In this document: positions 4,534-11,307 of the stretch, in pieces
How the letters are laid out: every line of letters begins with the position of its first letter
Numbering within the stretch: position 1 is the first letter of the stretch
DNA from: Anaeromyxobacteraceae bacterium
GTDB taxonomy: Bacteria > Myxococcota > Myxococcia > Myxococcales > Anaeromyxobacteraceae
Length of the DNA stretch: 64,000 nt
NCBI GenBank assembly: GCA_047602405.1
Contig: JASGHJ010000002.1
Span: forward strand, 2,432,001 to 2,496,000
Direction: 5' to 3'
Made by a program: the position numbers and the translations under genes
The notes under the pieces: model-generated
The model's input: the letters and a program-made list of their open reading frames with translations, nothing else
What the model was told of the DNA's origin: nothing
The model's database searches: none

Positions 4534-6450
4534 ATGGCCCTCCACCGTCGCGAGTTCCTCTCCCTCTCCGCCCTCGGCGCGCTCGGGCTCTCCGCCTCCG
4601 ACGCGCTCGCCCTCGCCGAGGTGGCCGGCCCGGCGCCCCGGCTCGAGCCCTTCCCGCTGTCCCGGGTCCGGCTCCTCGACGGCCCGCTGCGCGACGCCGC
4701 GGCCGTGAACCGCCGGCACCTCCTCGCGCTCGACCCGGACCGGCTCCTCCACACCTTCCGGCTCACCGCGGGGTTGCCGTCGTCGGCCGCGCCGCTCGGC
4801 GGCTGGGAGTCGCCCGACAACGAGCTCCGCGGCCACTTCACCGGCCACCTCCTGTCGGCCTGCGCGCAGGCGGGCGCCCACGACGGGGACGCCGCGCTCC
4901 GCGCCCGCGGCGTCGTGCTCGTCGAGGGCCTCGCCGCGTGCCAGGCCCGGCTCGGCACGGGCTACCTCTCGGCGTTCCCGGAGGAGCTCTTCGACCGCCT
5001 GCGAGCGGGGAAGCCCGCGTGGGCGCCGTTCTACACGCTGCACAAGCTCATGGCCGGGCTCCTCGACAGCTGGCAGCTCTCCGGGAGCGACACGGCCAGG
5101 AAGGTGCTGCACGGGATGGTCGAGTGGACCGCCCGCTGGGTGCAGCCGCTCGGCGAGGACGCCATGGCGCGCGTGCTCGAGCGCGAGTACGGCGGGATGA
5201 ACGAGACCCTCTACGCGTACGCCGCCCTCACCGGCCAGGCGCGCTGGCGCGAGCTCGCGCACCGCTTCGACCGCGAACGGATCCTCGGCCCGCTCGCCGC
5301 CGGGAAGGACGAGCTCCAGAGGCTGCACGTCAACACGACGATCCCTCAGGTGATCGGCGCCGCCCGCGGCGCGGAGGTGACCGGCGACGCCCGGCTCGGC
5401 CGCGCGGCGCGGTACCTCTGGGCCACCGTCACCGAGCGGCGCTGTTACTGCACGGGGGGCACCAGCAACGAGGAGTCCTGGAACCGGCCGCCCGGCGAGC
5501 TCGCGCAGGAGCTCTCCGGCTACACGCAGGAGTGCTGCGTCACCTACAACCTCAGGAAGCTCGGCCGGCACCTGCTCGCCTGGACCGGCGACGCGCGGAT
5601 CGCCGACCACCACGAGCGCACGCTCTGGAACGGCATCCTCGGCGTGCAGCACCCCGCCGACGGCGCGAAGCTCTACTACGTGCCGCTCGCGCCGGGCTTC
5701 TGGAAGCTTTTCGGGACCCCGCTCCACGACTTCTGGTGCTGCAGCGGGAGCATGGCCGAGGCGTTCGCGACGCTCGGCGAGGGCGTGTACTGGAAGGACG
5801 ATCGCGGCCTCTACGTGAGCCAGTACGTCGCGTCCACGCTCGACTGGACCGAGCAGGGCCTGCGGCTCGAGCAGCGGACCCGCTTCCCCGCCGAGGACAC
5901 CGTCCGCTTCACCGTCCACGCCGCCCGCCCCGTGCGCACGACGATCCGCTTCCGCGTCCCCGGCTGGTGCCGCGGCGGCGCGGCCACGCTGAACGGCCGC
6001 GCGCTCGAGGCGTTCGCCGAGCCCGGCAGCTGGTTCGCGCTCTCGCGCGAGTGGCGCGACGGGGACCGCCTCGAGCTCAGGCTCCCCATGCGCCTCGCCG
6101 CCGCGCCGATGCCGGACGACCCGGACCTCGTCGCCGCCACCCACGGCCCCGTGGTGCTCGCGGCCCGCCTCGGCGCTGAGGGGCTCACCGACGCCACCCG
6201 TCGCGCGCCGCCCACGAAGCCCCGGACGGTGCCGGAGTACCCGCTCCCCGCGGTGCCCGCACCGGACGTGGTCGCGGCCTCGACCGATCCCTCGACCTGG
6301 CTCGAGCCCGTGCCGGGGAAGCCCCTCGAGTTCCAGACCCGCGGCCAGGCGCGGCCGCTGCGCCTCTCGCCGCTCATGGACGTCTTCGACGAGCGGTACG
6401 CGGTGTATCTGAGGGTGAGGCCGGAGGCCGGGAAGGCCGGGCAGCCGTGA
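4534..6450 (+). CDS. Tat-exported glycoside hydrolase, GH127/GH146 beta-L-arabinofuranosidase-like
   Basis: RREFL Tat motif; LGGWE, LRGHFTGHLLSA, WAPFYTLHK, EYGGMNE, HVNTTIP, ECCVTYN, FWCCSGS. Confidence 0.9.
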   Translation: MALHRREFLSLSALGALGLSASDALALAEVAGPAPRLEPFPLSRVRLLDGPLRDAAAVNRRHLLALDPDRLLHTFRLTAGLPSSAAPLGGWESPDNELRGHFTGHLLSACAQAGAHDGDAALRARGVVLVEGLAACQARLGTGYLSAFPEELFDRLRAGKPAWAPFYTLHKLMAGLLDSWQLSGSDTARKVLHGMVEWTARWVQPLGEDAMARVLEREYGGMNETLYAYAALTGQARWRELAHRFDRERILGPLAAGKDELQRLHVNTTIPQVIGAARGAEVTGDARLGRAARYLWATVTERRCYCTGGTSNEESWNRPPGELAQELSGYTQECCVTYNLRKLGRHLLAWTGDARIADHHERTLWNGILGVQHPADGAKLYYVPLAPGFWKLFGTPLHDFWCCSGSMAEAFATLGEGVYWKDDRGLYVSQYVASTLDWTEQGLRLEQRTRFPAEDTVRFTVHAARPVRTTIRFRVPGWCRGGAATLNGRALEAFAEPGSWFALSREWRDGDRLELRLPMRLAAAPMPDDPDLVAATHGPVVLAARLGAEGLTDATRRAPPTKPRTVPEYPLPAVPAPDVVAASTDPSTWLEPVPGKPLEFQTRGQARPLRLSPLMDVFDERYAVYLRVRPEAGKAGQP

Positions 6451-6908
6451 GCCGGCGAGCGGGCCTCCTCCTGCTGGTCCTGGCCGCGGCCGCCTGCAAG
6501 GGGCAGCCGACGGAGCGAGAGCAGGCCGAGGCCGTCATCCGGGACCTCCAGCGGTCGCACGTCGACGCCAACGTCCCGACGGAGGCAGACTTCGACCGGC
6601 TGCTTCGCCGCGATCTCACGGGCTACTTCACCAGGCTCCGGAATGCTCCGGTCGAGGCCAGCTACGAACTCCTGCGCGAAAGCCCGACGCAGTCCGGGAT
6701 CGCCTTCCCGAAGTACTACCTCTGGATACGCCTGGGGCCTGGAGGCCAGCCGAAGGACCGCGGCGCGGTGCGCGTGGCGGCCATCCAGGGCGAGCGGTTC
6801 GAGGTGACGGACTTCCTCTCCGAGGAGGACATCCGGCAGGGCGCCCGGATCGAGCAGGTGTTCCCGGAGCCCGTCTGCGAGCGGATCCGCGGGTTGATGG
6901 GCCGGTAG
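6447..6908 (+). CDS. Hypothetical lipoprotein
   Basis: Lipobox LAAAAC; GTGA overlap with upstream stop; coding-like composition. Confidence 0.7.
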   Translation: MSRRAGLLLLVLAAAACKGQPTEREQAEAVIRDLQRSHVDANVPTEADFDRLLRRDLTGYFTRLRNAPVEASYELLRESPTQSGIAFPKYYLWIRLGPGGQPKDRGAVRVAAIQGERFEVTDFLSEEDIRQGARIEQVFPEPVCERIRGLMGR

Positions 6909-6934
6909 GGCGCTCGCGGGACCGGGCAGCCGCC

Positions 6935-7678
6935 CATCTTGAATTCGGCAGAGATCGTCAGGGAGGCGGATCAGCCGCCGCCGACCGGCGTCTCGTCCAC
7001 CTCCAGGAGCCCGTGCCTCCTCCAGCCGGTCGAGAGCAGCCATGACTGCGCCGGCGCGACGAACCGATCGCCGCCGGGCTCGGGATCGACGTGGCGCCAG
7101 CCGTCGAACCAGCGGCCCGAGGAGCGCGGATCGATCCAGGTCGGGTCGACGATGCGGTCCGCCTGCTTCGGCGTGTGGCGGCGGGCGTTCTGGAGGACGT
7201 AGACGAGGGCGTTGCGCACCTCGCGCGGGGTCTTGAGGAGCCTCACGTGGTGGCGGTCGCGGAACACCGCGCCGCTGCGCCCGAGTGCAGCGTTGAGGCC
7301 GCGGGCGATGCGCACGGAGAGGCCCTGGATGGTGCGGGAGAGCGCCTCGGGGGAAGTCGCCTCCACGACCAGGTGCAGGTGGTTGGAGATCACGACGAAG
7401 TGCACGACGCGCGCGCCGCTGCGCTCCCGAAGGCCCTCGAGCGCCCGCACGACGACTGCGAAGGGCTCCGGGCCGCGCAGGCTCGGGAGGCCGTCGACCG
7501 TCCGCAGCGTCACGTGCGCGGGGAAGTTCCTGGTTATTCGGGGCCGCCGGACGTGCGAGACGCGCTCCGGGTTGCGCGGGCGGCCCGCGCCCGGGCGGCG
7601 CCCTCCGTGCGAGCGGAAGGGGAGGTCGCGCTGCGCGCGCTGTGCGGGTCGCCGTGGCATCTTGAATTCGGCAGAGAT
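6935..7678 (-). mobile_element. Putative Y1/HUH transposase element bounded by identical 21-bp direct repeats
   Basis: catcttgaattcggcagagat at 6935-6955 and 7658-7678 bracket the transposase gene. Confidence 0.65.
6971..7660 (-). CDS. Y1_Tnp (IS200/RAYT-like) HUH tyrosine transposase
   Basis: HVTLR strand, HUH motif SNHLHLVVE, VFRDRHH, catalytic Tyr in YVLQN; N-terminal GGRRPGAGRP motif; ATG at 7660. Confidence 0.88.
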   Translation of the reverse strand: MPRRPAQRAQRDLPFRSHGGRRPGAGRPRNPERVSHVRRPRITRNFPAHVTLRTVDGLPSLRGPEPFAVVVRALEGLRERSGARVVHFVVISNHLHLVVEATSPEALSRTIQGLSVRIARGLNAALGRSGAVFRDRHHVRLLKTPREVRNALVYVLQNARRHTPKQADRIVDPTWIDPRSSGRWFDGWRHVDPEPGGDRFVAPAQSWLLSTGWRRHGLLEVDETPVGGG

Positions 7679-7802
7679 GATCGGATGGGCCTCCGACACT
7701 CGCCGATCCGGCACCGCCCGCCTCCCTGCGCTCTTTGCCGACCCCGGCAACATGCTCTACAACCGCCCGAGGCCAGCTGGAGCGGAGGAGCGCGAAAGGA
7801 CC

Positions 7803-8228
7803 ATGACGAGCGAAGAGGCGACGAACAGGAACAAGCAGGCGGTGGTGCGCTTCAACAAGGAGGTCATCGAGGGCGGCAGCGAGGCCGTCTTTCGCGAGCT
7901 CATGGCGCCGGACTTCGTGAACCGCACCGCCGCGCCCGGGAGCCCCGCCGGCGCGGAGGGCATGCTCTTCACCTTCAACCAGGTCCTCCGCCCCGCGCTC
8001 CCCGACCTCACCGTGGAGATCCACGATCAGGTCGCCGAGGGGGACAAGGTGACGACGCGCAAGACGCTCCGCGGGACGCACCGCGGGACGCTCCTCGGCG
8101 TGGCCGCCACGAACAGGCCGATCGCGATCGAGGTGATCGACATCGTCCGGCTGCGCGACGGTCGCTACGTCGAGCACTGGGGCATCAACACCCTGCAGGG
8201 CGTGCTCGCCCAGCTGCGCGCCGGCTAG
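7803..8228 (+). CDS. SnoaL-like ester cyclase
   Basis: NKQAVVRF, PDLTVEIHDQVAEGDKV, GTHRG, IDIVRLRDGRYVEHW. Confidence 0.9.
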   Translation: MTSEEATNRNKQAVVRFNKEVIEGGSEAVFRELMAPDFVNRTAAPGSPAGAEGMLFTFNQVLRPALPDLTVEIHDQVAEGDKVTTRKTLRGTHRGTLLGVAATNRPIAIEVIDIVRLRDGRYVEHWGINTLQGVLAQLRAG

Positions 8229-8400
8229 GCACGCCCCCCCCCGCCGGGTCGGGTGACCTCGTCGGCTTCGTGCATCGCCCCCCCGGGTCCGCGCGGCCCG
8301 GCGGCGCGGGCTCCGACCGCGGGTCCCGATCTCCGGCTCGGGTGGGGGTCGATGTTCCCTGGCGCGGGGCTCGGGGGTCGAACCGGCAGGAGGTCCGATC

Positions 8401-10689: not shown

Positions 10690-11307
10690 ATGACCGGCCT
10701 CCTCCCCGCCCTGCTCCTCCTCGCCGCCCAGGCGAACCCGGTGACGCTGCACGCCGGCCCCGGCGACGGGCGCCTCGTGATCCACGCCTTCAAGAAGGGG
10801 CTCTTCTCGGCGTTCGCGCACGACCACGCGTTCGAGGCCGGAGCGTTCTCCGTGCGCGCCGTCCTCCCCGACGGCGATCCGGTGCGCGCCGAGGTCGAGG
10901 TCGTCGTGGACGCGCGGACGCTCGAGGACCACGCGGAGGGGCTCTCGGCGGCCAACCGCCGGAAGGTCTCGGCGCAGGCGCGCGGTCCGGAGCACCTCGA
11001 CGCGGAGCGCTTCCCCGAGGTGCGCTGGACCTGCGAGGGGCTGGCGCTCGACCCGCCGGGCCCGGAGGGCGTGCGCGCGGGCCGCGCCCGCGGCGTGCTG
11101 GACCTGCATGGCGTGCGGCGGCCGGTGGTCCTCGAGGTCGAGCTCGAGCCCGAGGGCGGACGCTGGCGCGTCCGGGCGCACGGCAAGTTCCGCCAGAGCG
11201 AGTTCGGCGTGCACCCCTTCTCCGGGATGGGCGGCGCCCTGGCGGTGAAGGACGAGGTGGAGCTCGAGGTGTCGCTCACCCTCGGCGCCGCGGCCGCCGC
11301 CCCCTGA
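10690..11307 (+). CDS. YceI family lipid/polyisoprenoid-binding protein
   Basis: AHDH, LDAERFPEV, GVLDLHGVRRPV, FRQSEFGVHP, VKDEVEL. Confidence 0.85.
   Translation: MTGLLPALLLLAAQANPVTLHAGPGDGRLVIHAFKKGLFSAFAHDHAFEAGAFSVRAVLPDGDPVRAEVEVVVDARTLEDHAEGLSAANRRKVSAQARGPEHLDAERFPEVRWTCEGLALDPPGPEGVRAGRARGVLDLHGVRRPVVLEVELEPEGGRWRVRAHGKFRQSEFGVHPFSGMGGALAVKDEVELEVSLTLGAAAAAP

Follow-up and report, generated by a model that had tools for sequence, protein, structure and literature searches.

Why does a gene for a single-tyrosine nuclease carry the same short sequence on both of its sides, with one copy running into its own start codon? In the window, by which we mean the whole stretch of 64,000 nucleotides that was analyzed and to which unprefixed coordinates refer, a gene on the minus strand (6971–7660, ATG at 7660) encodes a 229-residue HUH/Y1 nuclease of TnpA-Y1 class-2-like type. 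Its frame is open upstream to 7753, but the homologues start near the Met at 7660. Identical 21-mers lie on the same strand at 7678–7658, ending on the transposase ATG, and at 6955–6935, beginning 15 nt past the TGA, with a spacing of 723 nt, just as the original prediction described, and they are indeed AT-rich for this genome (43% G+C versus 74%). Each contains a 15-nt core, at 7675–7661 in the 5′ copy (7658–7678) and at 6952–6938 in the 3′ copy (6935–6955), the latter lying between the transposase stop and a convergent lipoprotein-like gene. With up to two mismatches allowed, the core has two matches in the window versus 0.04 expected, a number reached in none of 100 shuffles, and a chance origin of the two is excluded. 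The sequence before the ATG has no Shine-Dalgarno-like purine run, no tnpB follows the transposase, and GT[AG]G hairpins are absent from the flanks of the gene, in line with the first description; Rfam gave no matches over 6300–8400. What did not hold up is the bulged hairpin that had been read into the 21-mer: copy 1, taken with the C before it, reaches no more than −1.7 kcal/mol (z −0.85), and folding of the bare 21-mer and of copy 2 gave no predicted structure. Hence the repeat and the HUH/Y1 gene are real, but the hairpin and the 0.74-kb IS200-like element built upon it are unsupported, and one point had been missed, namely that the 15-nt core is a dispersed genome repeat and is not private to the window's gene.

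The protein scores 16.8 bits against Pfam Y1_Tnp, under the 23-bit cut-off, and 40 bits against NF047646, for which the cut-off is 80; NF047646 matches all 110 aligned family members (best E 2.9e-15). In that alignment, which comprises 110 of 120 listed homologues with fragments and over-long entries left out, four residues are invariant in 110 of 110: His94 and His96 of the HuH motif His94-Leu-His96 (7373–7381, minus strand), the predicted catalytic Tyr154 (7199–7201, minus strand) in the sequence YVLQN, and Asn158. An N-terminal GGxRxGAGR stretch is nearly invariant. The AlphaFold model (pLDDT 87.9) has E. coli TnpA-REP, 4ER8, as its best structural match (Z 14.1, rmsd 2.6, 153 residues aligned), with IS608 TnpA below it at Z 9.9 and ISDra2 TnpA also matched, and sequence and model together display the HuH motif, the single tyrosine, and the IS200-like fold of the TnpA-Y1 superfamily. 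In a tree of 81 cores, with reference labels taken from NCBIfam scores and not from published subclass members and with E. coli RayT on a long branch, the 34 family rows cluster together (100/100), distinct from the other Y1 rows and separate from the 13 IS200 rows (100/99), and a quick tree puts the family on a long stem on the non-IS200 side. The predicted RAYT-like character of the enzyme is thus borne out by the match to TnpA-REP and by a place on the class-2 side of the tree; in the comparison with the RAYT and TnpA clades that had been proposed as a check, the family lies outside the IS200 clade and forms a clade of its own that lacks the RAYT signature. Specifically, the class-2 signature given in PMC6006769, Y---NP, occurs in 0 of 110 family members, in which the motif reads YVLxN. 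A Pfam scan of the query found no C-terminal HTH, and the tail of the model has just two short helices.

As far as its sequences allow a judgment, the family is apparently a large, separate, and unclassified HUH/Y1 clade. It comprises 2,645 representatives of 50% identity clusters (E up to 1e-30) and is present in 34 of 301 genomes of the phylum, with named records from Myxococcota, Planctomycetota, and others, the nearest being from Anaeromyxobacter, in keeping with a host of 74% G+C, and with further members in metagenomes. Its genes are multicopy, with up to 20 matches in one genome (G038). A search of genome contigs with the single protein gave no match and one with a 20-row alignment recovered homologues, while the ESM Atlas matches were solely automatically named Y1_Tnp clusters. 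No full-length match was found in 72,556 plasmids and no relative in viral contigs searched with the family alignment; the latter contain one 19-nt match to the motif pattern, with a downstream frame that does not encode a family member. Besides its family genes, the genome of the window (G000) has seven TnpA-Y1 genes that belong to other clades (L282, L284–L289), four of which were included in the tree and group apart from the family.

The repeat belongs to this transposase well beyond the locus. Of 212 loci with a score of at least 150, 195 remained at 90% deduplication and 177 had enough flank, and by a 4-fold cross-validated matrix 110 of these 177 have the motif in the 260 nt upstream of the gene, the orientation over the same loci being sense in 98 and antisense in 14. 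Matrix matches number 147 in 48 kb of upstream regions versus 19 in 979 kb of control, a conservation upstream of the gene that is inflated by the overlap of the left motif columns with the −10 box. Where both flanks are available (n = 155), the motif is upstream in 97 loci, which supports the claimed link of repeat and transposase, downstream in 13, and on both sides in nine, six of them bracketed directly and three inversely; 58 loci have no scored upstream motif, and 25 have additional copies 260–1500 nt upstream. Direct bracketing recurs around the gene of G019, and inverted flanking is seen in the third paralogue of the present genome and in L019 and L249. The overlap of repeat and start codon, first noticed at the window, proves to be a family trait: in 49 genes the start codon follows the motif end at once or overlaps it. 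Over 146 windows the motif shows no folding (mean z +0.16, 4% below −2), GT[AG]G hairpins are not enriched near family genes (8 in 107 kb versus 18 in 171 kb far from them), and a zinc-ribbon pattern for tnpB found none after the family gene in 100 loci. The motif is therefore a non-palindromic, non-hairpin tag of about 15–20 nt at the 5′ end of most genes of the clade. Of the two copies in the window, the 5′ one is the family-conserved copy, which we infer to overlap the −10 box and the transcription start. In one metagenome-assembled genome, tandem units of about 200 nt lie upstream of four family genes (L129, L132, L133, and L172).

What lies beneath the 5′ copy appears to be a promoter. 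The candidate, TGTCGG-N10-GATCAT (7677–7698, minus strand), has a −10 box whose first base is off consensus, and it is the only match to a loose promoter pattern in the window (7698–7677), where 0.88 would be expected by chance. By the usual spacing, transcription would start near 7669, inside the motif, and leave a leader of about 9 nt without a Shine-Dalgarno sequence. The pattern resembles the PafBC consensus tGTCgg(N10)tA(N3)T, as given in PMC8635444. The same bipartite arrangement precedes some of the family genes and also, in this genome, ssb, a UvrD helicase, and a RadA-like gene, but the PafBC-type promoters proper were described in mycobacteria, and the window copy is an imperfect one. 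The strict form TGTCRG-N10-TANNNT has 17 matches in the genome (e.g. C1:20445, C2:1842806, and C2:159020), compared with 0–2 for control patterns at spacings of 8, 9, 11, and 12 and three for the reversed pattern, and the genes behind it include ssb (two copies), the UvrD helicase, a RadA-like ATPase, an HNH protein, and TnpB-like genes, which suggests a LexA-independent damage regulon of the PafBC-like promoter class. Part of the pattern may instead, we presume, be a LexA half-site. Upstream of the family genes, the strict pattern is found in 13 of 177 (none in controls) and the loose one in 46 of 177 (12–13 in controls). Autoregulation of the transposase through the start-codon overlap, as originally suggested, seems plausible from this layout. 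Two observations on the genes behind these promoters are added here. The five TnpB-like genes, of about 640 residues each, lie at C1:600318, C1:1538075, C1:645844, C2:800038, and C2:2703433, the one scanned having a Cas12f1-like TNB domain, and no IS200 tnpA matched in this genome at E 1e-20; the two ssb copies (C1:5299–5778 and C1:20535–21014) are inverted and share their upstream sequence and first 70 residues, which reflects either a duplication or an assembly feature.

The core, TCTGCCGAATTCAAG, has 11 exact copies in the genome and 13 with one mismatch, and the 10-mer CGAATTCAAG occurs solely inside the 11 exact cores. Paralogue 2 (75% identical) has the core directly before its ATG and two further copies in direct orientation, one 950 nt upstream and the other 899 nt downstream. 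The third paralogue (46% identical) has a second motif variant in inverted arrangement, which has 13 genomic copies including a six-unit array. Solo copies of the core keep 15 of 15 bases with no remnant of a gene or promoter on inspection, and most motif copies are strain-specific and not at core-gene promoters. The exact core is found in two of 61 genomes, both of which also carry the close gene, and genome G001 carries a variant of its own, next to its gene and at other sites, so that motif variants track lineages. The scattering is patchy. Several gene-carrying genomes keep copies beside the gene only, one degenerate pattern counted 0, 2, 0, and 0 copies in the gene-carrying G007, G015, G031, and G036, and the same pattern gives 5–11 loose matches in some genomes without a detected gene. 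Around variant 2, which has a short 3′ arm GTTAC-N5-GTGAAC, we noted that the array (G000:C2:3676100–3677100) consists of six 157-bp tandem units, each a CGTC-like repeat plus the variant, and that at the third paralogue (L062; G000:C2:1324900–1326100) the inverted copies enclose a DUF2019-like ORF (below cut-off) that is missing from the same site in the sister genome G010. The CGTC-like hairpin repeat has 383 pattern matches genome-wide and lies 9–79 nt downstream on the same strand at five of 14 motif-1 copies and three of eight motif-2 sites; it is found at 8 of 195 family loci only, and we did not adopt the enzyme as its mover.

Whether the tag or its gene moves can be judged against G010, which is about 92% identical and syntenic and is the sole genome close enough for comparison among 37 of the genus searched. 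At the window locus a strain-specific segment (6422–8289), with three genes and the two motif copies between them, is replaced there: a three-gene 1.87-kb stretch has given way to an unrelated 1.27 kb, whose ORF we take from its translation to be EAL/HDOD-like. Besides the transposase gene, the segment holds a divergent SnoaL-like gene (7803–8228, plus strand, 141 residues) and the convergent lipoprotein-like ORF (6447–6908, plus strand, 153 residues, without a Pfam match); both are missing at the syntenic site and each is possible cargo. The conserved flank on one side is a GH127 beta-L-arabinofuranosidase-like gene (4534–6450). G010 thus offers no clean 723-bp empty site of the kind that a precise insertion would leave. 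A gene fixed in all relatives is not what was found either, since the window gene is absent from the G010 site, but two paralogues do occupy orthologous loci in G010 and the genome of the window, with nucleotide identities of 87% and 77%. Dispersed paralogues in other genomes, 78–96% identical in nucleotides, have promoter, motif, and gene in common as far as roughly the stop codon, the homology of the closest pair (96%) beginning about 4 nt before the motif, while the recent pairs compared have no common 3′ end sequence; this indicates that the gene spreads, slowly, with one conserved side. Identical dispersed copies are absent in the sets compared, where the sole 100% pair is a 1.7-kb tandem duplication.

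The motif sites turn over in a REP-like manner. Of 20 sites compared with G010 (14 of 14 motif-1 and six of 13 motif-2 copies), 13 are absent and seven retained, and 19 are inside, or no more than about 40 nt away from, DNA unshared with G010, often a single foreign ORF, against a background of 26 events of at least 150 bp in 154 kb (about one per 6–9 kb), a count that includes some motif sites and artefacts. The inserts vary between gene-free stretches of 130–190 nt and a single ORF accompanied by the motif. At retained sites the 5′-side DNA is usually swapped; at the paralogue-2 locus the segment between two direct motif copies holds different ORFs in the two genomes, and three other retained sites have a complete ORF immediately 5′ of the motif in one of the genomes only. 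The junctions reveal no fixed cut site. The breakpoints lie mostly at coding boundaries, at variable distance from the motif, and may therefore mark selection and not cut sites, and in six of 11 cases an unrelated repeat likewise falls at a variable site. By eye, a small similar-looking membrane-protein ORF recurs at different motif-linked sites of the two genomes (L063:3611–3931 and L081 near 10800–11100).

From these data we lean, without great confidence, toward a REPtron-like (RAYT-like) system in which the enzyme has an unfolded, sequence-read single-stranded DNA substrate laid over its own promoter. The tag is likely the single-stranded substrate of the enzyme and the counterpart of the REP. 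Specifically, we propose that the protein would read the motif by sequence on single-stranded DNA and that His94/His96 and Tyr154 would nick near it and rejoin the end elsewhere, much as E. coli TnpA-REP acts at REPs, where PMC8266576 reports cleavage and strand transfer. In the literature considered, the Y1 enzymes tested use hairpins, and recognition by sequence only has no tested precedent there. Nicking and strand transfer near the tag would scatter the tag and would occasionally move the gene or neighboring DNA. One tag would suffice, so that the moved unit would be fixed on its 5′ side and ragged on its 3′ side, and the downstream copy in the window would be a further scattered tag and not a right end. 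A motif copy that covers the −10 box, the transcription start, and the ATG could let the protein damp its own expression, which in some family members may be tied to DNA damage through the PafBC-like promoter. The upstream placement of the motif, the pairing of its variants with lineages, its turnover and lack of a fold, the structural match to TnpA-REP, and the dispersed paralogues with one shared side speak for this reading; the loci without a scored upstream motif, the patchy scattering, the junctions at no constant offset, and the hairpins used by known TnpA-Y1 enzymes speak against it.

One alternative is an operator-only reading: the protein would bind the motif, perhaps as double-stranded DNA through the N-terminal GGxRxGAGR stretch, and repress its own promoter, with the solo copies as relics left by lost copies of the gene and with some other sequence as the nuclease substrate. 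The conserved copy over the −10 box, start site, and ATG, the occurrence of the upstream motif in either orientation, the near invariance of the N-terminal motif, and the genomes in which the motif lies beside the gene only are all consistent with this; however, the solo copies keep every base of the core yet carry no gene or promoter remnant, 130–190 nt inserts contain the motif without the gene, the second variant forms a six-unit tandem array, and 25 of 155 loci have extra copies farther upstream, so that we consider it unlikely, if worth weighing. That the motif is instead where an unrelated host factor binds and, by coincidence, controls these genes is the least probable of the readings, as it fits the non-palindromic, sequence-conserved, promoter-overlapping nature of the motif but not the way in which the motif follows the protein family across phyla, the pairing of variants with paralogue lineages within one genome, or the strain-specific copies away from core-gene promoters.

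Two other readings remain to be weighed. The enzyme might stay put and, much as an integron would but with an HUH nuclease, insert or exchange single foreign genes at joints formed by the motif copies. The 19 of 20 sites at or near unshared DNA, set against roughly one event per 6–9 kb, the different ORFs between the motif copies of paralogue 2, and the whole ORFs 5′ of the motif at three other retained sites point this way, but there is no fixed junction, the cargo orientation is mixed, no common cargo was shown between sites, tolerant intergenic hot spots can explain much, as the unrelated repeat at six of 11 variable sites illustrates, and the case comes from one genome pair; we regard it as rather improbable. 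The same doubt applies to a wider form, a damage-inducible clade with unfolded-tag joints that captures and shuffles single genes and in which the enzyme gene is itself one cassette. The autonomous minimal element of about 0.74 kb, with direct repeats as IS200-like subterminal hairpin ends, is largely refuted already, and we hold it to be very unlikely. Direct bracketing at the window, at the G019 gene, and in six of 155 loci overall, the absence of the gene from the syntenic G010 site, and the multicopy family speak for it; against these stand the lack of a hairpin, which leaves IS200-like ends unsupported, the lack of a clean empty site, a shared 3′ end, and identical dispersed copies in the sets compared, the rarity of direct bracketing, the paralogues at orthologous loci, the position outside the IS200 clade, and the plasmids searched in vain.

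The REPtron-like reading favored here bears on an older question. In the literature covered, the role of Y1 subclasses without REPs is described as unknown, and the present clade supplies a short, precisely placed, unfolded candidate substrate with which the question of cleavage by REP-less Y1 enzymes becomes testable. If the tag did anchor gene capture, myxobacteria and planctomycetes would have a further, new way to acquire genes, and the system would offer a compact tool for sequence-specific single-strand ligation. The literature considered (including 10.1101/2020.03.09.984088 and, for PMC3733652, its text) gives no account of the clade or motif, and the supplement text of PMC6006769 has no match for myxobacterial terms.

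Among known systems, the IS200/IS605 elements (IS608 and ISDra2) share the fold family and, at the window locus, the same-strand repeats on both sides, but subterminal hairpins, tnpB (0 of 100), and Y---Q are missing from the family, which also lies outside the IS200 clade and has neither near-identical dispersed copies (46% and 75% in G000, 78–96% elsewhere) nor a precise empty site in G010. Integrons combine a fixed enzyme gene with variable single-gene segments, and IS91/ISCR elements, which capture genes one-endedly, have a single conserved end. Both features are echoed here, in an enzyme gene adjoining variable single-gene segments and in one conserved end, but the enzyme class differs and the motif has no attC-like fold and no defined junction, the single ORFs beside motifs without a constant junction being seen in one genome pair. 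Closer are the TIRtrons (TIRYT, subclass 2.1), in which, according to PMC3733652 and PMC6006769, a Y1 gene has a non-REP repeat that can overlap its 5′ end and forms small dispersed families; a conserved SS after the core and the inverted flanking of some members are further likenesses. Some TIRs described in PMC3733652 are unrelated to GGGGWSAS and overlap 5′ ends, which gives the general idea a precedent. The family differs from the TIRtrons described there in having no GGGGWSAS consensus, no HTH match in the query (Bac_DnaA_C, HTH_23, HTH_28), and two-sided flanking only as an exception (nine of 155, three inverted; direct at the window), and it forms a clade apart from the other Y1 genes sampled, although, the TIRYTs being compared by their description in the text, it might overlap with an unnamed TIRYT subgroup. 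The REPtrons, TnpA-REP/RAYT with REP or REPIN (PMC6006769, PMC8266576, bioRxiv 10.1101/119735), remain the nearest model for the proposed mechanism. The flanking GT[AG]G palindromes of GTAG-REPtrons (subclasses 2.2, 2.4, 2.5, 2.7, and 2.8) are absent at the window locus and not enriched near the family genes, and the repeat of the family is no palindrome and lacks a GT[AG]G foot; it does not form inverted doublets, is of low copy number (about 14 and 13 in G000), and overlaps promoter and start codon, while the proteins lack Y---NP, the query falls under the NF047646 cut-off, and the N- and C-terminal motifs are the family's own. Nevertheless, the family shares with the REPtrons a HuH and tyrosine core, 4ER8 as its best structural match, the class-2 side of the tree, a low-copy gene at orthologous loci, and a short cognate repeat that lies beside the gene and, in a patchy manner, is dispersed between genes.
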